Shown: piece by piece, positions 9,343 to 64,000 of the stretch | How the letters are laid out: each line of letters starts with the position of its first letter | Numbering within the stretch: the first letter of the stretch is position 1 | IMG/VR virus record: IMGVR_UViG_3300027917_000018 | Coordinates: 32,001-96,000 of that record | DNA from: a virus | Taxonomy: Duplodnaviria; Caudoviricetes | Reading direction: 5' to 3' (one strand) | DNA length: 64,000 bases | Position numbers and translations under genes: made by a program | Notes under the pieces: model-generated | What the model was told of the DNA's origin: nothing | The model's input: the letters and a program-made list of their open reading frames with translations, nothing else | Database searches by the model: none

Positions 9343-9894
9343 ATGCTTTTTACTGAGCGAAAAGAGTTCCTGTACGATCCGGCGCTGTTCAGGCGGGCGG
9401 ACACTCAGACGGCCCTGAAATTCCACAGGGAACACACTGTCGCTTTTGCGCCACGGCCTTATCCCAAGTTTTTCGAGGCGGACCATCGGTCTCAAAAGAT
9501 CGACCATCTCTGGCACATGCCATTGGACAACAGAACGGTTTTCAGCCGAGTCCTGGATATTCCGTGCCTGAATAGCCACGAGCGGCCTCGGTGGAGCCAA
9601 ACCAAAGTCGGCCTCTACGCACAGAGAAACGACCGTTTCACGCTGTCCAACCTGATCCTCCAGGAGCTGGACTATTTCCCGGAGCGCGGGGACCAGGTTT
9701 ATTACAACGGTTACCGGTACATGATCGTGGACGTGGTACTGGAGCCCCAGGGCTATTGGCAGCAGACCAACGTCTGGCTGGGCCTGGCCGTTGTCTGCAT
9801 CATCCCGCCGGATGGGGATGCCCGCCCAGTGACCAATCCCGGCGAAGCCGTGCCCTCTGAGCTGTATCAAACCCGGCCATTGCCTGAAGCCTGA
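9343..9894 (+). CDS. Neck/head-closure-like virion protein
   Basis: 183 aa, first gene of the neck-sheath-tube run; beta-barrel-like C-terminus (PERGDQVYYNGYRYMIVDV); TAGTTA upstream. Confidence 0.4.
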   Translation: MLFTERKEFLYDPALFRRADTQTALKFHREHTVAFAPRPYPKFFEADHRSQKIDHLWHMPLDNRTVFSRVLDIPCLNSHERPRWSQTKVGLYAQRNDRFTLSNLILQELDYFPERGDQVYYNGYRYMIVDVVLEPQGYWQQTNVWLGLAVVCIIPPDGDARPVTNPGEAVPSELYQTRPLPEA

Positions 9895-39080: not shown

Positions 39081-40547
39081 ATGAGCGACATCCGCCCACT
39101 TGATTTGCCGACCGCTGCCGGTATGGACTTCGGCTCGGGAGACGTGCGCCATTTCAGCGAAGACGACGCCGTAAACGTGCCGGGGCTCCAAAACCCGACG
39201 CGGATGCTCGCGGAGCGCGATAATCTGATCGCGGTCAAGCTCAACGAGGTCGTCACGGAGGTCAACAACAAGGAGCAGGTTGTCCCGCTGCCCATTCCGC
39301 GCACCGGTATTCCGTCCTCGACCGAAGAGGTTGTCTTCAATTTCAAAATTCCCGACGGCTTTGAGGCCCGCATTCTGAGCGCCGCCATCGGCAGCAGCCC
39401 CGTCACGACCGACCTGACCCTCAAGATTTACTTCAGCACCGGCTACGGCAACACCACTGGAACTGAGCTGGTCTCGACCACTGGCTCTTTCGACAGTGGC
39501 GTGGCCTTTTACAACACGGGCGAGTTCATCGTCGCCGTGGTCAACGATGGCAGCCAAAGCCTCGACGCCGTGGCCAGCGTGATCCTAACGGTCCGTCCGA
39601 TGGGCTCCGAGGCCAGTCTCCTGGTCGGCAGCATCATTCGGGGTGCTCGCGGCTATACGGGCGGTAGGGGCGACAAGGGCGACAAGGGTGATCCGGGCGT
39701 TGGCGGCGCTGGCACGCCTGGCCTTTCCTGGGCCGGAACTTTCTCCTCCGCAACCAGCTACAATCCTCCCCAGGCGGTTTATTACACACGCGAGAACGGA
39801 TCGACCGAAAGCTACATCGCGATTGCGGCCAATCCGTCCCCGGCCAAGCACCCGACCGACTCGGCTTATTGGGACCCGCTGGCGGCGGGTGCGGCGGCAG
39901 TGCTGACGTGGCGCGGGCCTTGGACCTCGGGGCAAAACTACTATCTGAACGACGCGGTTAAGCACAACGGGTCCTCTTACATCTGCATTCAGACGGTCAT
40001 CAACAGTACCGTCAACCCGGCCACGGATACGACAAATTTTGACCTCCTGGCCGAAGCCGGTACCGATGGCACCGACGGCACTTCAGTCTCCTTTGCCAGC
40101 CAGCCTGTTGGTTTCCCGGCGGCGGACGGCGGCAGCCTCGCCTCCACCGCTCCGGCGGAGGGCGACTACGAGCTGATCAATGTTGGCGGTTTGCCCGGAA
40201 CGATCACCGGCAAAGCCACGGAGTACTGCATCCTGGGCGGGCCGGACGACAGCTACCCTGGCCGTTACGTGATCATGAACGGGGCCTTCCTGGCGAAGTT
40301 CGTGGGCACGCTCAGCATCACCATGCCGGTGTCCTACTACACCCAGCAGCAGTACACCCAAAGCAATGTCCAGGTGACCGCTACCGCTCAGGGCGATCAG
40401 CCCGTGCCGTTCCCTTCACCGGCAGGAACGCACGCGGGCGGGGTGCGGATCGATTGGCCGTCCTCGACGCAGGTCGACATCATTGTGACCGAGACCGTGG
40501 GAGAGCAAAAGGTCGTCGTCAATGCGACGGGATTTCAGATAGCCTGA
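39081..40547 (+). CDS. Tail fibre-like protein with collagen repeat and CBM5/12-like modules
   Basis: NPTRMLAERD N-terminal motif, GARGYTGGRGDKGDKGDPG collagen stretch, WAGTFSSATSY and WRGPWTSGQNYYLNDAVKHNGSSYIC repeats. Confidence 0.65.
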   Translation: MSDIRPLDLPTAAGMDFGSGDVRHFSEDDAVNVPGLQNPTRMLAERDNLIAVKLNEVVTEVNNKEQVVPLPIPRTGIPSSTEEVVFNFKIPDGFEARILSAAIGSSPVTTDLTLKIYFSTGYGNTTGTELVSTTGSFDSGVAFYNTGEFIVAVVNDGSQSLDAVASVILTVRPMGSEASLLVGSIIRGARGYTGGRGDKGDKGDPGVGGAGTPGLSWAGTFSSATSYNPPQAVYYTRENGSTESYIAIAANPSPAKHPTDSAYWDPLAAGAAAVLTWRGPWTSGQNYYLNDAVKHNGSSYICIQTVINSTVNPATDTTNFDLLAEAGTDGTDGTSVSFASQPVGFPAADGGSLASTAPAEGDYELINVGGLPGTITGKATEYCILGGPDDSYPGRYVIMNGAFLAKFVGTLSITMPVSYYTQQQYTQSNVQVTATAQGDQPVPFPSPAGTHAGGVRIDWPSSTQVDIIVTETVGEQKVVVNATGFQIA

Positions 40548-56633: not shown

Positions 56634-57073
56634 AACTCGACGCGGAAACCCATGACTACATCGCCCAACGAGCGCAGTGGTACTTCGACGTTTACCCGGC
56701 GGGCTACCCATACTCGGTTGAGAATTTCGTTCTCACCGGGGACGGCGTGGACGATCTTGATTTCGCCATCACGCGGATCGAGGCGTACGGAACCATCCGC
56801 CCGCCTCGCATTGTCTGCGAGGTCGGCACGAGCGGCACGGTCATGCTCGGGAACGCCTTTCCCAAATATCTTCCCTGCGACGTTGAAGATGTTAGAGCAA
56901 TTCGTGAAGCGTTTATCGCATGGTATGGGACGGTCAACAGGCCGGACATCTACGCGACCGGGACCGGTGCGTCTATGGAGACACCCTGCCAGCCACAAGC
57001 TGTTTGCGTGTGGTGTACCACCGGGTCCCTCACCGGGACTTACGCGGGTACGGTCTTTCCGGGACAATGCTGA
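56630..57073 (+). CDS. Hypothetical protein with Cys-rich C-terminus
   Basis: Start MKLDAE at 56630 (ATGA overlap). Confidence 0.5.
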   Translation: MKLDAETHDYIAQRAQWYFDVYPAGYPYSVENFVLTGDGVDDLDFAITRIEAYGTIRPPRIVCEVGTSGTVMLGNAFPKYLPCDVEDVRAIREAFIAWYGTVNRPDIYATGTGASMETPCQPQAVCVWCTTGSLTGTYAGTVFPGQC

Positions 57074-59103
57074 TGAAGAAGGTTACGGAAGCGGACGGCG
57101 GAGCTGAGCGCGCCCGGCGCGACTTCAAAGCCATGATTCAGGCCCAGCGCGACGCTGAGGCCGCCAAGGCGCGTGCCCGCGAGGCGGAACGGGCCACGGC
57201 CCGCCACCAAAAGGTCTTGGATAACGGGCCGCCGCTGCGGGACGGCGAGGAGGATAACCCGAAGATGATGTGGTTTCGGGAGAACCTGGAATGGGAGCCG
57301 CACCCGGAACTGTGGTGCCCGCCGAGTACTGGCTACAGCGACGGCAGCGGCAGCTTCGTCGAGCGCTCCAACGCCAAGTGGTTCACCGAAAACATGGGTG
57401 AAATCTTCAGCCAGGTCGGCGGCGGCTACGGCACGGTATGGACCGGCATTACCGATGAGGACCGGTGGGTCATCACCGACGAGCAGTTTGAGCAGCTCAA
57501 GGATGTGGTCGAGGGCCTGGAGGGCTACCCCATCATCGACGAGCAGCTCTACAGCGAAATGGAGTACGACGCCTACAACGAGTACTACCAGGGCGAAGGG
57601 CGCAAGGACCTGCGCCAGGCGCTCCTGCAAAGGTTCTCCGGCGACCCCGAGGCGCAGATGGCCGTGCGCTTCAGCTCGGTCGACGCGTTCGACCACCTGG
57701 CCTGGAATAGCGACATCAGCCAGGCTTTTGAGACAGAAACGGGCGGCGGCGTTTACTTTCGGGCCAACGCGGCTGCCGAAGGCTTCAACCGGGACGAGGT
57801 CGTGGACCTGGTCAGCGAGGAGGAGGCCCGCACGGCAATGGCCAGCGCGTGGGCCGAGCGTATTCAGCCTGGGTGGATCGACACGCTGGCTGAGGTTCGA
57901 CGCGACGATGAACGGCTGGTCAACACGGTCGCGGAGCTGGAGCCCTCGTCAGGCTTCAATTTGTTTACGAAATTGATGGTTAAGGTTGGAGCCGACTGGG
58001 AATGGGATCAGCGGGAGGATGAGGCCAGGGACGCGTTCGACATCGATAGTGATTCTATGAAGGAAATGGCGCAGGCACTGGAGCCGGGCATGCTGAGCGG
58101 TCTTCGCCCCGAGGACCCGCGCCAGCTGCGCTTGGCCATCGAGCAGATTCTCAATGGCGAGCCGACCTTCACGCTCTTCGAGGGGTTTAAGGAGAAGAAG
58201 CAGCTTTTCGTCAGCCAAGGCGCGAGCCCCGAGGAAGTCGACGCACTCCTTACCCAGTTCAAGCGCCTGAAGCAACGCGGCCTGCTCCAGGGTGAGGAGG
58301 CCGACATCGACCGGTACACTGACTTGGATTCGCTGCGGCAGGCGGTCGAAGCCGCGTCGCAGAAACAGAGCAAAACGGGGCGCAAGCGGGAGGTTCGGCA
58401 CAAAGAGGCTATCGTGCTCCGGGATGACGAGGAGATGCAGATTGTCGTTCCGAAAACCTGGGCCGCCGCGAAAGCCTACGGCAAGGGGACCAAGTGGTGC
58501 ATCAGCATGAAGGAGTACCCGAGCCACTGGACCGAGTACCACAAGAAGCTCGCCAAGCATTACATGATCTGGAACAAGCGGCTGCCCGCGCCCACGATGG
58601 GCACCCACGGCGAGCCGATCGGCGGCAGCCCGCTCTACAAGATTGCCGTTACGATTTACCCGGACGGCCATTCATCGATCTACAATGCGCAGGACCAGGC
58701 CATCACCGAGCAGGACCTGAAACGAGCCACCGGTTTCAGCCTTTCGGATTTCAAGTCTTGGGAGGAGCACGAGCTTGCGGGCCGCGACCTGTTCCGCCTG
58801 ATGGGCGCGAAGAACGTGCCGTTCCGCGAGCGTGTGGAGCGGATCGGGGCCGAGGGCTGGGCCGAGATGGGCAAGAATGTGGCCATGCGCGAACTGTGGT
58901 CCAGTGACCAGGCCGAGGACCTGAAGGGCAAAAGCAAAGAGGAGGTCGACGCGGCCTGGGACGAGTTCTGGCAGAAGGCCCGGCAGGAGCTGCTGGACTA
59001 CCCGGACGACGAGGACTACGAAAAGAGCCTGAAGTTCTACGTCGAGTCGCTGCGGCTGCCGCCCGGCAAACAGCTGGCACTGCTGGAGGACGCCGATGAA
59101 TAG
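57067..59103 (+). CDS. Large acidic multi-domain protein (jumbo-phage head-protein type)
   Basis: N-terminal ERSN...GLEGYPIIDE domain; C-terminal DIDRY...GKGTKWCIS domain recurrent in large phages. Confidence 0.55.
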   Translation: MLMKKVTEADGGAERARRDFKAMIQAQRDAEAAKARAREAERATARHQKVLDNGPPLRDGEEDNPKMMWFRENLEWEPHPELWCPPSTGYSDGSGSFVERSNAKWFTENMGEIFSQVGGGYGTVWTGITDEDRWVITDEQFEQLKDVVEGLEGYPIIDEQLYSEMEYDAYNEYYQGEGRKDLRQALLQRFSGDPEAQMAVRFSSVDAFDHLAWNSDISQAFETETGGGVYFRANAAAEGFNRDEVVDLVSEEEARTAMASAWAERIQPGWIDTLAEVRRDDERLVNTVAELEPSSGFNLFTKLMVKVGADWEWDQREDEARDAFDIDSDSMKEMAQALEPGMLSGLRPEDPRQLRLAIEQILNGEPTFTLFEGFKEKKQLFVSQGASPEEVDALLTQFKRLKQRGLLQGEEADIDRYTDLDSLRQAVEAASQKQSKTGRKREVRHKEAIVLRDDEEMQIVVPKTWAAAKAYGKGTKWCISMKEYPSHWTEYHKKLAKHYMIWNKRLPAPTMGTHGEPIGGSPLYKIAVTIYPDGHSSIYNAQDQAITEQDLKRATGFSLSDFKSWEEHELAGRDLFRLMGAKNVPFRERVERIGAEGWAEMGKNVAMRELWSSDQAEDLKGKSKEEVDAAWDEFWQKARQELLDYPDDEDYEKSLKFYVESLRLPPGKQLALLEDADE

Positions 59104-59803
59104 CCAGGCCCTCCGTCTCGCCCGATGCCTGCTGGAGCAGAAGTTCAGCTACAGCACAACGCAGATCAATCTGCCGTCGCCGCTCGACGATTTCGTCGTG
59201 AAGTGGGGCCGGATGCACGTGCAGGACCAGGACCTCTACTACTTTGACGATGGCGGCGGTGGCCGTGAAACCGAACCTCATATCACGGTGCTTTACGGGC
59301 TGCTGGAACCCGAGCCCAGCGATGCGCTCCGGCAAATCGTCCGCCGGACTTCGCCCTTCTGGATTCGGTTGGGGCCGACGAGCCTCTTCGAGAACGAGGA
59401 CTTTGACGTGCTCAAGTTTTCCGTGGTGAGCCCCGACTTGGAGGCGCTCAGCGGTGCGATCCGCCAGGCGTGCCCAAACGAGAACAAGTACCCGAAGTAC
59501 ATCCCGCACGCCACAATAGCCTACGTGAAAAAGGGCCGCGCCAAGCACTTGAACGGGCTGTACCCGTTCGAGGGTTATCCGCCCGTTCCCAGCGAGTTCG
59601 AGGCTAACACGTTGATTTTCAGCGCTGCCGGGGATGACGACGACCCGAAGCGCCGAACAGTGAGGCTTCCATTCAACCGGACGAGGAACGAAAGTCTCAA
59701 TCAGGACAGCCCATTCCAGGGTTTATGGTTCCCGGCAGACGCGTCCGAGCTGGCCAGCAAGATTCTCGGACTCAAGAAACAAGACCCAAAGCAGGTTGTT
59801 TAG
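59096..59803 (+). CDS. 2H phosphoesterase, T4 gp57B/Acb1-like
   Basis: Two HxT motifs (PHITV, PHATI), GRETEPH, YIPH.TIAY pattern. Confidence 0.75.
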   Translation: MNSQALRLARCLLEQKFSYSTTQINLPSPLDDFVVKWGRMHVQDQDLYYFDDGGGGRETEPHITVLYGLLEPEPSDALRQIVRRTSPFWIRLGPTSLFENEDFDVLKFSVVSPDLEALSGAIRQACPNENKYPKYIPHATIAYVKKGRAKHLNGLYPFEGYPPVPSEFEANTLIFSAAGDDDDPKRRTVRLPFNRTRNESLNQDSPFQGLWFPADASELASKILGLKKQDPKQVV

Positions 59804-59836
59804 CACTCATCCTGCGAAGGGGTAGTTAGAGCAGGC

Positions 59837-62800
59837 ATGAGCTTAATCAACCTGACCGAAGATTTCCTCTACGACCGGCTGCCCGAGGGGCTGATCCAGC
59901 TGGACGAGAGGGGTCTGATCCAGGCTGTCCTCGGTGGGTTTCAGGACCGCATCGAGGATTTGCGCTTCTACGCCAAGCGCTTCCAAAGCTTCTACACGCC
60001 GATCCCCGAGGCGCTTTATCGCCCAAACGTCGTGCTGGTCACTTATCGCACCGATCAGGGGCGCGACATCACGCGGAGCATTGACCTGGAGACCGAAACG
60101 CCGCAGGACGGGACGAGCGACCTGCTGGTATGGGCCGCCACGCAGCTGAATGTCGATACGGACCGAGTCTCCAACGCCCGCTATGGCGTGGACCCGCTGC
60201 GAGACATCGAACCCAGCCTGCTCGATTACCTGGCCACCAACGTCGGGGCCGTCCTCTACGCCAGCGCGATCCTCAAGGAGAGCCCGTCGGTTACGACCAG
60301 CACGGGCACACTGACCGCCGCCAATTACGCCTACAGTAAGCTCTTGGAGACGTACTTCCCTCGGCTCAAGTTCAAGGGCACGGCCAAGAGCTTCGAGGCG
60401 CTTGGCAAACTGCTGGGATGGGATGACGTGCGGGTCACGCCGCTTTGGGGCCGGGTGAGCCCACGGCTGCCAAACGATCCAGGCAGCGACGTGAACGACC
60501 CGGACTTCTCGGAGATGCCGGAATTCTGGCCGCAGCAAACGATCGGGCCTTTTTACGACCCGCTCGACCAGGCCGATGGGCCTTTTTACGACTGGACCGG
60601 GACCGCGTCGGCGGGCACTGCGTCAACGAAGTTTTACAGCCAGGTCGTAAACGGATTTCAGCCGTACGTGGAGGTTCTCGTGACCGGGACCGCCTCCGGC
60701 ACGGTCATCCAGCACCCGTCCAGCGGCAGTTACGTGCTGGCCGACGGAGCGCCGCACCAAAAGGCGATGGTCGACGCCGGGGACATTCAGTTCCGGGCGC
60801 TGGGCGAGGGCGAAAGCTACAACGGCGTCACGGTCACCGTCTTCGACGTGGTGGACGCGGACTTGCGGGGCGTCAACGTGGATGGACGCCTTTCCTCGAT
60901 CAAGTACCGGACCAGCTTCTACAACCTGGGTCTGACCATCACATCGGAGAAGGCGCAAGCGGTTTTCGGAACCCTGACGGCCAAGGCCAACAAGGACCTG
61001 GCGGTCGCGCCCCACGAGTACCAGAGCTTTGTCGGCAACCTCACGGCGGTCAGCCCCTACCGGCCATTCACCAGCGGCACCGTGGCCCTGGACACGCTGA
61101 CCACGGACTGGCTGACGCCGTTTACCGGGACGATTTCAACCTACACCGAGCGTCGGGAAGCCGGGTTGGGCGATCGGCAGGAGAATTGGGACGACCTGTC
61201 CCGCGCCGGAGCCCAGGCCACGCAGGCGCTGGAGGAAGTGCGGGCCGCCACCCGGCGTCCTCGCGTCAGCTCCTTCGGCTATCTGCAAAAGGACCAGGTG
61301 GGCTACGCGCCCTATCCGGCGCAGGACTGCCTGTTTACACTTTACGGTTCGATCGTCGCGGGGACGTATCACGGCACGTTCAGCACTTACCCGCTGCCGC
61401 CCTATTACGCCGACGTAGGCTATGTGAGCGGTGGCTTTGTGACCGTTTTCGACGCGGGGACCAATCCGGCCTTTCCAGGCATCGTCACCTATCAAAATTG
61501 CGCGGACGGCGGGACGATCGCGGGTACGATCGGCTACACCGGCACAGGCACGAACTCCTATTTGTTTACGGCGACGGGCACGTGGCCTCAATGGGGTACT
61601 GTTTGTGCGCTGTTCACGGTGACCGACACTGAAGTTGTCCGGCCAGAGCCCTTCAGTTGGTCGACCGGCACGACGGTCCTGGCTGCCTTGGCGGATTACG
61701 GCCTGGCGGGCACGAACCACGATGAGGTCGCCGCGCTCATCAACAGCTGGAGCCCGCAGGCGGTCGTGGCGATGGGCGACAACAACTACCCGGACGGACA
61801 GGCGGCCACGATTGCGGCCAATAACGTCGGGTACGAGAGCTACATTGTCAGCGACCGTTTCTTCCCGGCGATCGGCAACCACGATTACTGCTGCTCCTCG
61901 ACCGGGACCGACCTCACGCCGCACCTGACCTATTTCTTTGACGGCACCGCTCCAGGCGAAGGTGGTCGCTACTACAGCCGCCGGATCGGCAACGTCGAAA
62001 TCTTCTGCCTCAACGCGGGCTGGAACAGCAGCCAGGCAGCGGCAGCCGTCGGCGACCCTTATTACGTGACCACGCAGGAGCCCAGCGGGAACAGCCTGAC
62101 CAGCACCCAGGCGCTCTGGCTCAAGCAGGCCCTCCAGGAATCGACGGCGACGTGGAAAATCGTTTACAGCCATTACCCGCCCTACGCGTCGGAGACCACA
62201 ACGAACAACTATGCGCCCGGTTACCCAAGGCTGCGCTGGCCGTTCAAGGCGTGGGGTGCTGATCTGTACCTGGCCGGGCACGTTCACGCCTACGAGCGGC
62301 TGGAGGTCGATGGCCTGACCTACATTACGTGCGGCGTGGGCGGGGCGGGAAATCGCGTCTTCGACGGTTACGTGTCTCCAGGGAGCGTGGTCCGCTATGC
62401 GCCCTTGGGCGCAACGACCGAGCATGGGGCGCTCCGCATCTTCGCGACCGGCCAAGGGCTCCAGATTGATTTCATTCTCGACACCGGCCAGGTCATCGAC
62501 CGCGTGTTCTTGGACGCCACCAAGAAGTATCTGGCGCGGCCCGAGGACGAGATTGACGACGATGAGGTCTACGGCACCGCCGACATGTACCCGTGGCGGC
62601 GCGACATCGTGGGCAACGGCGAGCTGGTCGAGCAGGACTACTACACGGCTGGCACCAACAACCTGGCCGTCTCGATCCTGGAGAAGACCATGACCGTGCC
62701 GGACCAGACCGGTGCGGAATACGACGTTTACGCGATTAAAGGCCAGGAGCCTTACCGTCTGGTGGCGGCGCTTCGCGCCACGAGTCCGGCCTCGGATTAC

Positions 62801-64000
62801 GTGCCCGGCCAGCCCAGCGTGGCCTTCAGCGGCACGTTCCGGGATCAGGCTGGCCTCGGGGCCGACGACCTCAATCCGTACGTCAACCCACACGACCCGG
62901 ACAATTTCCGAACCCAATTCAGCCGGATTGACTACGACACGGTTTTCAATCCCGGCTGGGCGATTTACAACGCGGGCCTGGTTCAGGGCGTTTTGGTCGC
63001 CGACCCGGACAAGTTCGGCGGGGCCTACCACACCGAGAACCTGGTGGGCTGGCTGCCGTTTAACGAGCACCCGCTTGATGACCTCACTGTCACGGATCAC
63101 GCCCGCACGCTGGCTGTGAGCCAGTTTCTGAACGCAGCACCCGAGGACCGCGTTTGGGACGACACCTTTGGGTGGGTCCTCTACATGCGGCCCGGTGCCA
63201 CACTTCAGGTTTTCGCCGACCGGGAGATGACGACCGAGGGGCTGATGACCTTCTGGATCAACGTGGACTCGACCACAACCGGCCCCACACAGGAAATCAT
63301 CTTTGAGTTCGGCCCGATGCGCTGGACGTTGGACGCCGGGGCCAACCAGATCACGTCCTGGGGCAATGTTCCTGGGGTTGGCTGGACGGTTAGCTCCAAC
63401 TACCCTGTGACGCCCGGCCAATGGCATCTGTTCGGTATGGGATTCACCACGACCGCCGACGTGTTCCTCGATGGCGACCTGTCATCGTTCAACTATTCGG
63501 CGCTCGGCGGAGGCGGCCTGGTGGCCACAACCGACGACACGGTTCTGTCGCTGTCCGGCAAGTCGCGGCGCTACAAGATTCACGACCTGCGCATTTGGAC
63601 CGAGGTCAAGACCTACGGTCAGATGGAGCTGGTCCACAACTACCAGCCGAGGCCGACGCAAACCCTTTACAGCCTGGGCCACATTCTGGCCGCCAACGAT
63701 GGCGACCGGTTTGGGCTGAAAGTGCTGCCCCGTGGCTGGCTGGTTCCAGCACAGCTTCCGGCCTGGGTTCGCACGCCCAAGTACGCCCGCGTGGAGCGCT
63801 ACGACGGCGGCGGGGAATACCAGGGCGAGGCGCGTTTTAAGGAGGTCGGGCTCGGCGGCGGACAGATGCCTCCCTACAATTGGCAATTGGGCACGCAGGG
63901 GCCGACTTTGACCGGCGCTGGGACTGTGGTGGTAAGCACGCAGATCGGCGCGTACCCCGGCACGAACGCCTACTGGGGCAAAGATTCGATTCCCGGCACC
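59837..64000 (+). CDS. Large baseplate/tail protein (partial, at least 1388 aa) with embedded purple-acid-phosphatase and LamG domains
   Basis: Translated by hand with no stop to the window end; N-terminal LLDYLA.NVG...KFKGT wedge motif; metallophosphoesterase at about 61670-62510; LamG-like at about 63040-63650; TAGTTA 8 nt upstream. Confidence 0.8.
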   Translation, partial: MSLINLTEDFLYDRLPEGLIQLDERGLIQAVLGGFQDRIEDLRFYAKRFQSFYTPIPEALYRPNVVLVTYRTDQGRDITRSIDLETETPQDGTSDLLVWAATQLNVDTDRVSNARYGVDPLRDIEPSLLDYLATNVGAVLYASAILKESPSVTTSTGTLTAANYAYSKLLETYFPRLKFKGTAKSFEALGKLLGWDDVRVTPLWGRVSPRLPNDPGSDVNDPDFSEMPEFWPQQTIGPFYDPLDQADGPFYDWTGTASAGTASTKFYSQVVNGFQPYVEVLVTGTASGTVIQHPSSGSYVLADGAPHQKAMVDAGDIQFRALGEGESYNGVTVTVFDVVDADLRGVNVDGRLSSIKYRTSFYNLGLTITSEKAQAVFGTLTAKANKDLAVAPHEYQSFVGNLTAVSPYRPFTSGTVALDTLTTDWLTPFTGTISTYTERREAGLGDRQENWDDLSRAGAQATQALEEVRAATRRPRVSSFGYLQKDQVGYAPYPAQDCLFTLYGSIVAGTYHGTFSTYPLPPYYADVGYVSGGFVTVFDAGTNPAFPGIVTYQNCADGGTIAGTIGYTGTGTNSYLFTATGTWPQWGTVCALFTVTDTEVVRPEPFSWSTGTTVLAALADYGLAGTNHDEVAALINSWSPQAVVAMGDNNYPDGQAATIAANNVGYESYIVSDRFFPAIGNHDYCCSSTGTDLTPHLTYFFDGTAPGEGGRYYSRRIGNVEIFCLNAGWNSSQAAAAVGDPYYVTTQEPSGNSLTSTQALWLKQALQESTATWKIVYSHYPPYASETTTNNYAPGYPRLRWPFKAWGADLYLAGHVHAYERLEVDGLTYITCGVGGAGNRVFDGYVSPGSVVRYAPLGATTEHGALRIFATGQGLQIDFILDTGQVIDRVFLDATKKYLARPEDEIDDDEVYGTADMYPWRRDIVGNGELVEQDYYTAGTNNLAVSILEKTMTVPDQTGAEYDVYAIKGQEPYRLVAALRATSPASDYVPGQPSVAFSGTFRDQAGLGADDLNPYVNPHDPDNFRTQFSRIDYDTVFNPGWAIYNAGLVQGVLVADPDKFGGAYHTENLVGWLPFNEHPLDDLTVTDHARTLAVSQFLNAAPEDRVWDDTFGWVLYMRPGATLQVFADREMTTEGLMTFWINVDSTTTGPTQEIIFEFGPMRWTLDAGANQITSWGNVPGVGWTVSSNYPVTPGQWHLFGMGFTTTADVFLDGDLSSFNYSALGGGGLVATTDDTVLSLSGKSRRYKIHDLRIWTEVKTYGQMELVHNYQPRPTQTLYSLGHILAANDGDRFGLKVLPRGWLVPAQLPAWVRTPKYARVERYDGGGEYQGEARFKEVGLGGGQMPPYNWQLGTQGPTLTGAGTVVVSTQIGAYPGTNAYWGKDSIPGT

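Follow-up and report, generated by a model that had tools for sequence, protein, structure and literature searches.

A 64,000-nucleotide stretch of an uncultured tailed-phage genome from marine sediment (hereafter the window; bases 32001-96000 of the 202,975-bp IMG/VR record IMGVR_UViG_3300027917_000018, GC 0.60, CheckV completeness estimate 89%) carries near its end a gene for a giant wedge protein of the gpI/gp7/TssG type, a subunit of contractile-tail baseplates, into which a complete metallophosphatase of the purple acid phosphatase (PAP) type is inserted. The architecture of this protein, the identities of its domains, the intact metal ligands, the clean insertion, the recurrence of PAP and PhoD phosphatases in its family and an upstream motif common with virion genes are established in our analysis. 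With somewhat better than an even chance, in our judgment, the gene specifies a wedge protein whose phosphatase is displayed on the virion and acts on phosphorylated host-surface polymers at adsorption.

A preliminary description of the gene, made from the window alone, reported frame +2 as open from the ATG at 59837 to 64000, and the sequence agrees, with 1388 uninterrupted codons. It also took the gene to run off the window. The frame does continue past 64000, but the gene is not really 3'-truncated: when the contig is extended, the parent record carries the frame to a stop at window-equivalent 65125, giving a full protein of 1762 residues, named P0002 (genome 91837-97125), with 374 residues encoded past the window end. 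The gene and its parts within the window are as follows (ORF, open reading frame; AF2, AlphaFold2).

59837..64000, on to window-equivalent 65125, plus strand: giant baseplate wedge protein gene (ORF; Logan contigs cover the entire gene)
59837..60481, plus strand: residues 1-215, N-terminal helices and Tail_P2_I (gpI/gp7/TssG-type) wedge domain (Pfam in homologues, profile, VIA)
60452..61651, plus strand: residues 206-605, rest of the N module (AF2 model me4cc52cc5716, VIA ranges; kept in all family members)
61652..62521, plus strand: residues 606-895, inserted PAP-type binuclear metallophosphatase, predicted from Pfam PF00149, PDB relatives and homologues lacking the insert
62522..63004, plus strand: residues 896-1056, start of the C module, with an RPED motif and then a beta-rich linker region (family comparison and AF2 model)
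63005..63733, plus strand: residues 1057-1299, concanavalin-A-like/LamG-type jelly roll, lectin-like by modeled fold (VIA-align, Foldseek, Laminin_G_3 in homologue P0019)
63734..64000, plus strand: residues 1300-1388, continuation of the C module (AF2 model mb130bb6e25fb)

What is the evidence for an inserted enzyme? BLAST comparison with 53 family members resolves the protein into two conserved modules, residues 1-605 and 896-1735. In most homologues the counterpart of query residue 605 abuts that of residue 896 directly, leaving residues 606-895 as extra sequence. By this comparison, a complete PAP-type metallophosphatase, a predicted enzyme, has been cleanly inserted as residues 606-895. 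Pfam Metallophos (PF00149) matches the insert at residues 634-819 (E-value 3.2e-11), and its 12 best PDB relatives are all PAP or tartrate-resistant acid phosphatase (TRAP) entries (E 4.4e-5 to 0.019), with kidney bean PAP and mammalian TRAP at E 4.4e-5 to 2e-4. The best relatives overall are bacterial proteins of 300-350 residues that share about 40% identity with the insert across 93-99% of the domain length (E 5e-44), many of them named tartrate-resistant acid phosphatase type 5 by the Joint Genome Institute (JGI). These bacterial homologues start with signal peptides or lipoboxes, which indicates that they are extracytoplasmic enzymes; P0002 has no signal peptide.

The PAP motif set, DxG / GDxxY / GNH(D/E) / VxxH / GHxH, supplies seven metal ligands. 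All five motifs had been pointed out in the preliminary description, and they lie where it placed them, in a domain whose nearest relatives are of the PAP type.

61694 ADYG (D620), 61775 GDNNY, 61874 GNHD, 62171 VYSH (H779) and 62276 GHVH, plus strand: the five PAP motifs
61694, 61778, 61787, 61877, 62171, 62279 and 62285, plus strand: codons of the predicted ligands D620, D648, Y651, N681, H779, H815 and H817, respectively

On sequence grounds, the occurrence of this set is far beyond chance. The seven ligands, together with the GNH histidine H682, are identical in 11 of 11 aligned nearest bacterial homologues, and the ligands are kept in most of the 14 PAP-bearing family members first examined. 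The insert is conserved to the same degree as its flanks (47-53% versus 46-56%) and its GC content at third codon positions equals that of the rest of the gene (0.83), which argues that it is old and maintained. Recent horizontal acquisition was considered and rejected because of this equal composition and because the insert is also found in deep branches of the family tree.

A misassembled fusion of a separate phosphatase ORF was likewise considered and rejected. Logan contigs from two runs of one marine-sediment sample cover the whole gene with zero differences, and a run from a second sample and study yields separate contigs that bridge both domain junctions (positions 9652 and 10522 of locus L002). 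These samples may be the source of the IMG/VR record itself; the stronger argument against an artefact is the same insertion at the same site in 17 further proteins from other assemblies. The preliminary description had named such an artefact as an outcome that would undo it. In the GNHD region (L002 9854-9884, window 61854-61884), two short low-depth sediment contigs match over 31 bases only and diverge on both sides; their probable source is a phosphatase gene, related to this one, that another organism of the sample carries.

The family occurs solely on large contigs (up to 260 kb) of uncultured phages. Local hidden Markov model (HMM) searches of the 115 members of at least 1300 residues gave the following census.

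PAP domain: 18 of 115 members, 17 of them at the same insertion site
PhoD_N plus PhoD at the extreme C-terminus: 23 of 115 members
Both PAP and C-terminal PhoD: 1 of 115 members (P0326, counted in the 18 and in the 23)
Neither phosphatase: 75 of 115 members

The search for homologues with and without the insertion, proposed at the outset, returned both: 17 with PAP at this site and, in most homologues, the two modules directly abutting. Pfam confirmed the PhoD positions in four proteins, and one further arrangement was seen in P0374, where a PAP-like domain lies elsewhere, at residues 1634-1882. In a tree of the N module, PAP bearers and PhoD bearers form separate, well-supported clades, with PAP also present in deep branches. 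As read from these sequences, phosphoesterases of two lineages are recruited to one scaffold at two different positions. That PAP occurs in one clade, PhoD in another and both in a single protein argues that the chemistry itself is selected, and cutting phosphate esters at the surface of the host looks like a putative virion function that has been selected more than once. Other arms in the family (P0043, P0041 and P0018 among the bearers) carry a PA-IL lectin, an SdiA-regulated propeller or a vWA-like module, and CarboxypepD_reg-like modules also occur; this variety suggests that the scaffold is a platform for exchangeable host-surface modules.

Tail_P2_I (PF09684) comprises P2 gpI, Mu gp48, the N-terminal part of T4 gp7 and TssG, the single-copy subunit of the (gp6)2-gp7 wedge heterotrimer. 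Membership of P0002 in this group is a family-level assignment: by transitive profile evidence, residues ~86-212 are a Tail_P2_I (P2 gpI type) baseplate-wedge domain. The most conserved stretch of the family N-terminus is a block reading LLDYLA...FPRLKFKGT...LGWDDVR at residues 128-200, whose first part (LLDYLA...KFKGT, residues 128-182) had already been singled out as a baseplate-wedge pattern. Tail_P2_I is the top Pfam family for 7 of 27 homologous N-termini, and homologue P0020, 52% identical to the query over residues 1-215, exceeds the cut-off (24.5 versus 20.6 bits, at residues 125-201). A profile of residues 86-212, built from 27 family members and scanned against 1.84 billion representative proteins, gave 124 matches, 104 of them with E < 1e-10. 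Nearly all of these 104 are proteins of 1200-2800 residues with the module at the same place; some are shorter and are probably truncated entries. The remote matches (proteins of 984-1332 residues, E 1e-7 to 5e-4) bear out the wedge pattern: in 8 of 8 tested, Pfam places Tail_P2_I at exactly the matched segment, over the cut-off in 7. Profiles A1 and A3 searched against PDB sequences found no solved wedge protein, hhalign of profile A3 against a single P2 gpI sequence gave no match, and PHROGs searches of the N-termini and remote relatives returned nothing useful.

The AF2 model of residues 1-610 (predicted local distance difference test, pLDDT, 71) comprises several flexible domains: a beta-rich domain at residues 206-445 is predicted within the wedge alpha/beta domain, which residues 446-484 close, and an Ig-like beta-sandwich is predicted at residues 495-594. 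In an exhaustive VIA-align comparison, about 15 of the top 50 matches are wedge subunits, at Z 5.2-7.3, a range in which values (Z < 8) are common among unrelated alpha/beta domains. They include diffocin (8v3w_E, Z 7.2), phiCD508 (9g8s_C, 7.3), pyocin R2 (6u5b_m, 6.7), Mu (9ki1_H, 6.6) and TssG (6n38_G, 5.4), as well as P1, cyanophage A-1(L), PVC, AFP and further contractile injection systems, and fall on the small alpha/beta domain, residues ~172-205 plus 446-484; the wedge chains matched also include 9ay5_a and 8kea_c. We regard this likeness as suggestive only.

The partners expected of a wedge protein are encoded in the genome: a 786-residue gp6/gpJ-like protein (Baseplate_J; phrog_219, E 7.6e-36; genome 182889-185249) and a gp25/gpW-like protein (genome 69999-70748). 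A Pfam scan of the whole record for Tail_P2_I returned no candidate at E <= 1. Complex prediction for residues 1-480 of the gp6-like protein with residues 1-500 of the wedge protein scored 0.47 versus 0.00 for the best control, with contact agreement of at least 69% and partner pLDDT of at least 68. Of the solved complexes, 58 of 80 reach the mark that it passed, as do 2 of 110 mismatches; among scores of 0.60 or less, only 7 of the 80 and both mismatches do. The support is weak, and the pass may reflect likeness to, or memory of, complexes already solved. Across relatives the gp6-like partner is far more conserved than the wedge protein (57-84% versus 35-52% identity), which fits a peripheral, host-facing role for the latter. 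Wedge genes are scattered in this phage. The gp6/gpJ-like gene (locus L004, genome 182889-185995) is followed by an FkbM-like methyltransferase gene and no gpI-like gene; this following ORF was ruled out as a gpI candidate by its FkbM-like identity and because hhalign with profile A3 gave nothing.

Beyond the phosphatase, the AF2 model of residues 896-1762 (pLDDT 73 overall, 85-95 over residues 1035-1335) bears out the LamG/concanavalin-like domain that had been proposed to follow it. As modeled, residues 1057-1299 are a concanavalin-A/LamG-type jelly roll, lectin-like by fold. Its best VIA-align match (Z 19.3, root-mean-square deviation 2.5, 199 residues aligned) is the jelly-roll subdomain of clostridial neurotoxin binding regions and their non-toxic partner proteins, a fold shared without any implication of toxicity. 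Domain 4, carbohydrate-binding, of the GH43 arabinanase AbnA (Z 17.3), the tailspike of cyanopodophage Pan3 (Z 16.6), sialidase lectin domains, pentraxins and a carbohydrate-binding module of a phage Dit protein also match, and Foldseek of the jelly roll reaches E 3.5e-9. Pfam Laminin_G_3 (PF13385) does not match the query itself; at the equivalent place it scores 24.1 bits in homologue P0019, under the cut-off of 27.6, and homologue P0017 has a precomputed PF13385 annotation. A second confident beta-sandwich, at residues ~1505-1665 and past the window end, is a possible carbohydrate-binding domain in the AF2 model. The C-terminal domain (residues 1480-1762) gave sub-threshold leads only, to malectin-like clusters (0.83) and GLEYA (E 0.044).

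When would such a gene be expressed? A short motif precedes it.

59822..59828, plus strand: GTAGTTA motif, its TAGTTA core ending 8 nt ahead of the ATG

The genome holds 37 copies of TAGTTA, and 17 of the 37 are located 2-16 nt upstream of a same-strand ORF start; by a rough estimate, fewer than one would be expected there by chance. Nameable genes behind the motif encode the tail sheath (phrog_23, E 4e-45), a T4-type portal (Portal_T4, E 1.1e-14; the gp25-like gene comes next) and a tail-fibre-like protein. Three relatives' loci keep the motif 4 nt ahead of the start codon of the orthologue: L006 and L007 (protein P0024, 37% identical to P0002) and L008 (P0053, 42%). GTAGTTA is a candidate late-gene promoter or start-proximal element, and its occurrence before sheath, portal and tail-fibre-like genes would place the wedge gene in the late, or virion, gene class.

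How might the protein work? We propose a gpI/gp7/TssG-type wedge protein of a contractile-tail baseplate that has been enlarged to a long peripheral arm. The first ~215 residues and residues 446-484 would hold it in the wedge, next to the gp6/gpJ-like protein. In T4, Mu and pyocin baseplates there is one gpI/gp7-type copy per wedge and six per virion, and by analogy with such solved baseplates the same number would apply here. The remainder would point outward: the Ig-like domain, the PAP-type catalytic domain, the ConA/LamG-like lectin domain and further beta-sandwiches. The lectin-like modules would bind host surface glycans, whereupon the binuclear metal centre (D620, D648, Y651, N681, H779, H815 and H817) would hydrolyse phosphomonoesters or phosphodiesters of an envelope polymer, possibly lipopolysaccharide, capsule or a teichoic-acid-like polymer. 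The receptor layer would then be cleared or remodelled such that the baseplate can seat. The wedge-borne phosphatase would in that case be a virion component, catalytically active, with a substrate on the envelope and a part in adsorption: a receptor-processing enzyme comparable to the depolymerases of tailspikes and the glycerophosphodiesterases of baseplates. Action on host-surface phosphoesters is an inference, which the PhoD-bearing sister clade and the secreted nature of the nearest bacterial relatives support by comparison. More tentatively, at clearly less than an even chance, such proteins may form a distinct class in which interchangeable and sometimes combined PAP and PhoD metallophosphatases on the gp7/gpI wedge cut envelope-glycan phosphates as an obligatory step of adsorption, the type of phosphatase tracking envelope chemistry and acting as a host-range determinant.

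Several results weigh against this proposal. Presence in the particle has to be inferred, since a tblastn search with the N module found nothing in 50,697 phage records, cultured or deposited (the PAP insert gave one weak fragment only), and even the major capsid protein's best cultured relatives are only ~27% identical. No relative, and hence no host lead, came from a scan of 185,579 species genomes. Classical PAPs are mainly monoesterases with acidic optima, and polymer cleavage is not their textbook activity. The 75 family members with neither phosphatase indicate that the activity is dispensable for the scaffold. Motifs are degenerate in some bearers: P0056 is without most ligands, P0008 is without the tyrosine, and P0006 and P0010 read GDSH. 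As to the carrier itself, the query N-terminus has no match to Pfam Tail_P2_I, its model has none in the PDB, and its gene does not adjoin those of its presumed partners.

Could the phosphatase fold serve as a binding module only, a receptor-binding domain that recognises a phosphorylated surface ligand without turnover? Retention of the domain in orthologues with lost or changed ligands (the same P0056, P0008, P0006 and P0010) and the lectin-like binders in the neighbouring domains would suit this explanation. We think it unlikely, as the query and most orthologues retain the seven ligands and the catalytic histidine just as free-living enzymes do, and a second phosphatase of unrelated lineage, PhoD, on the same protein is more easily explained by selection for chemistry. 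An auxiliary function in phosphate scavenging is more doubtful still. In that case, the enzyme would free inorganic phosphate from organic phosphorus either within the infected cell or in its surroundings, a role that has been proposed for phage phoA and phoD; PAP and PhoD are classical phosphorus-scavenging exo-enzymes, and the phage-borne PhoD of Anabaena phages has been so interpreted (bioRxiv 10.64898/2026.02.14.705889). Yet an enzyme covalently built into a wedge protein, at about six copies per particle, would be a negligible source of nutrient. It lacks a signal peptide for export from the infected cell, we found no PhoH, PstS-like or other Metallophos gene in the 203-kb record (89% complete), and the marine sediment habitat also speaks against scavenging.

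The gene directly upstream raises a different question. It encodes a 2H phosphoesterase with weak similarity to Acb1, a pairing kept in relatives, and a mycobacteriophage metallophosphoesterase is reported to subvert host immunity (PMC12287305). Might the domain then act inside the cell, either before assembly or upon delivery, on nucleic acids or cyclic-nucleotide immune signals in concert with its 2H/Acb1-like neighbor? We give this only a slim chance. The nearest relatives are secreted PAP/TRAP-type enzymes rather than nucleases or cyclic-nucleotide phosphodiesterases, the domain lies between the wedge anchor and lectin-like domains that remain outside the cell in contractile systems, and the upstream motif is common with structural genes.

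Least probable, in our view, is that the protein does not belong to a baseplate at all but is a large multidomain protein of a secreted or cell-surface type, or else a fibre with another attachment site, whose N-terminus is merely gpI-like. The gp6-like gene is ~91 kb and the gp25-like gene ~21 kb from the wedge gene, and the W-J-I or gp6-gp7 gene order is absent; this synteny is typical of the wedge family and not a defining trait of the protein. When AlphaFold models of the N-terminal and C-terminal parts were searched with Foldseek, a check already envisaged in the preliminary description, the jelly roll (residues 1057-1299) found its matches but the N-terminal model did not: nothing was returned from the PDB at E <= 0.001, and only uninformative, low-TM rows came from BFVD and the AlphaFold DB (AFDB) clusters. 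The weak outcome of complex prediction points the same way. Against this stand the profile-level homology to Tail_P2_I, the wedge proteins among the VIA-align matches, the lack of any other Tail_P2_I candidate in a genome where gp6-like and gp25-like proteins are present, and the restriction of the family to large phage contigs, with none in the 185,579 species genomes. A virion-displayed phosphatase on a baseplate wedge arm remains the reading that we prefer.

How does P0002 compare with known systems? With P2 gpI, T4 gp7 and TssG it shares the homologous domain at residues ~86-212, including the LxxLA...KGT...LG block, and gp6/gpJ-like and gp25/gpW-like partners in the genome. In being large and multidomain it resembles T4 gp7 (1032 residues) and not the ~176-residue P2 gpI. 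It departs from the P2 gpI/TssG group in its 1762-residue length, in the beta-domain inside the wedge alpha/beta domain and in its enzyme and lectin-like modules; its gene is not beside J-like and W-like genes, and its sequence is too divergent for the Pfam model. The insert, for its part, has the five motifs, seven ligands, GDxxY tyrosine and GHVHAYER sequence of the small TRAP/ACP5-type PAPs (1qfc, 1war, 1ute) and of kidney bean PAP (2qfp/4dhl). Unlike those enzymes and the secreted bacterial homologues, it is without a signal peptide and lies within a phage structural protein, and its activity is a prediction from sequence.

Phage particles are known to carry glycosidases, lyases, esterases and peptidoglycan hydrolases, with glycerophosphodiesterases in a few Gram-positive phages. 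To our knowledge, no PAP-type or PhoD-type enzyme within a conserved baseplate subunit has been characterised. The preliminary description regarded the architecture as without precedent, and this has to be tempered: a phosphoester-cleaving enzyme on the adsorption apparatus is already known in other folds, and stand-alone PAP-like and PhoD genes are known in phages. As mentioned in PMC6116005 (refs 39-40), Lactobacillus phage Ld17 has a baseplate glycerophosphodiesterase and phi29 a teichoic-acid-degrading appendage, gp12. Both are phosphoester-cleaving enzymes of the adsorption apparatus aimed at anionic surface polymers, as is predicted for P0002, but they have other folds (a glycerophosphodiesterase TIM barrel and a beta-helix) and belong to sipho- and podoviruses of Gram-positive hosts, whereas P0002 would place a binuclear metallophosphatase in a myovirus wedge. 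PhoD of Bacillus subtilis (PF09423) breaks down wall teichoic acid as an endo-acting phosphodiesterase (PMC7086022). The sister clade carries PhoD_N and PhoD at the C-terminus of the scaffold, which suggests, by analogy, a function equivalent to that of the PAP insert; P0002 differs in having a PAP-type domain at another position, and the link between PhoD and polymers comes from one bacterial enzyme. Stand-alone PAP-like genes occur in Microbacterium phages (Rowlf gp26 and EK1-cluster gene 47; PMC12352085, PMC13560708), and phoD lies beside neck-fibre genes in Anabaena phages (bioRxiv 10.64898/2026.02.14.705889). These are also phage-encoded PAP or PhoD, some among structural genes and with scavenging-type or unassigned functions, but they are separate genes, unlike the P0002 enzyme, which is fused inside an identifiable baseplate subunit.

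What is new, then, is the firm identification of the carrier as the conserved gpI/gp7 subunit of the wedge in a group of T4-like phages of ~200 kb and, as deduced from sequence comparison, the family-wide pattern of two phosphatase lineages at two sites on one scaffold. Should the adsorption role prove true, it would add a new enzyme class to the adsorption toolkit, open a way into the envelope chemistry of sediment bacteria not yet in culture and caution against taking every phage phosphatase for a phosphate-scavenging auxiliary metabolic gene. The ~300-residue insert is a compact, self-contained object for biochemistry.

The neighbourhood of the wedge gene is conserved in the order GT9 glycosyltransferase, helicase, large protein ending in a 2H phosphoesterase, wedge gene, PKD-like protein of 413-428 residues and, later, a sigma/helix-turn-helix protein. 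In the window, the 2H gene directly upstream (59096-59803) encodes 235 residues (2_5_RNA_ligase2, E 5.7e-13) and overlaps by 8 nt the end of a 727-residue ORF (56920-59103). Relatives have the 2H domain within one protein of 1196-1212 residues, so that two phosphoesterase-bearing large proteins are conserved neighbours. Downstream, a 423-residue ORF (L002:13122-14393, window-equivalent 65122-66393) overlaps the wedge-gene stop (ATGA) and matches PKD_4 weakly; relatives have a 34% identical orthologue after their wedge gene, and the product may be a partner or fibre component.

Other genes of the window also have the motif ahead of them.

7691 (minus strand), 9343, 10610, 12219, 25951 (minus strand), 27853, 36080, 39081 and 54345 (minus strand); plus strand unless marked: other ORFs preceded by (G)TAGTTA

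The ORF at 39081-40547 encodes a 488-residue tail-fibre-like protein (phrog_5073, E 1.2e-18) with a weak CBM_5_12 match; it is TAGTTA-preceded and is the second gene past the gp25-like one. The Gp23 capsid family has a second, short match (24.4 bits) at genome 111348-111482 (window-equivalent 79348-79482), in a 240-residue frame; the main capsid gene is far away, at genome 19228-20685.

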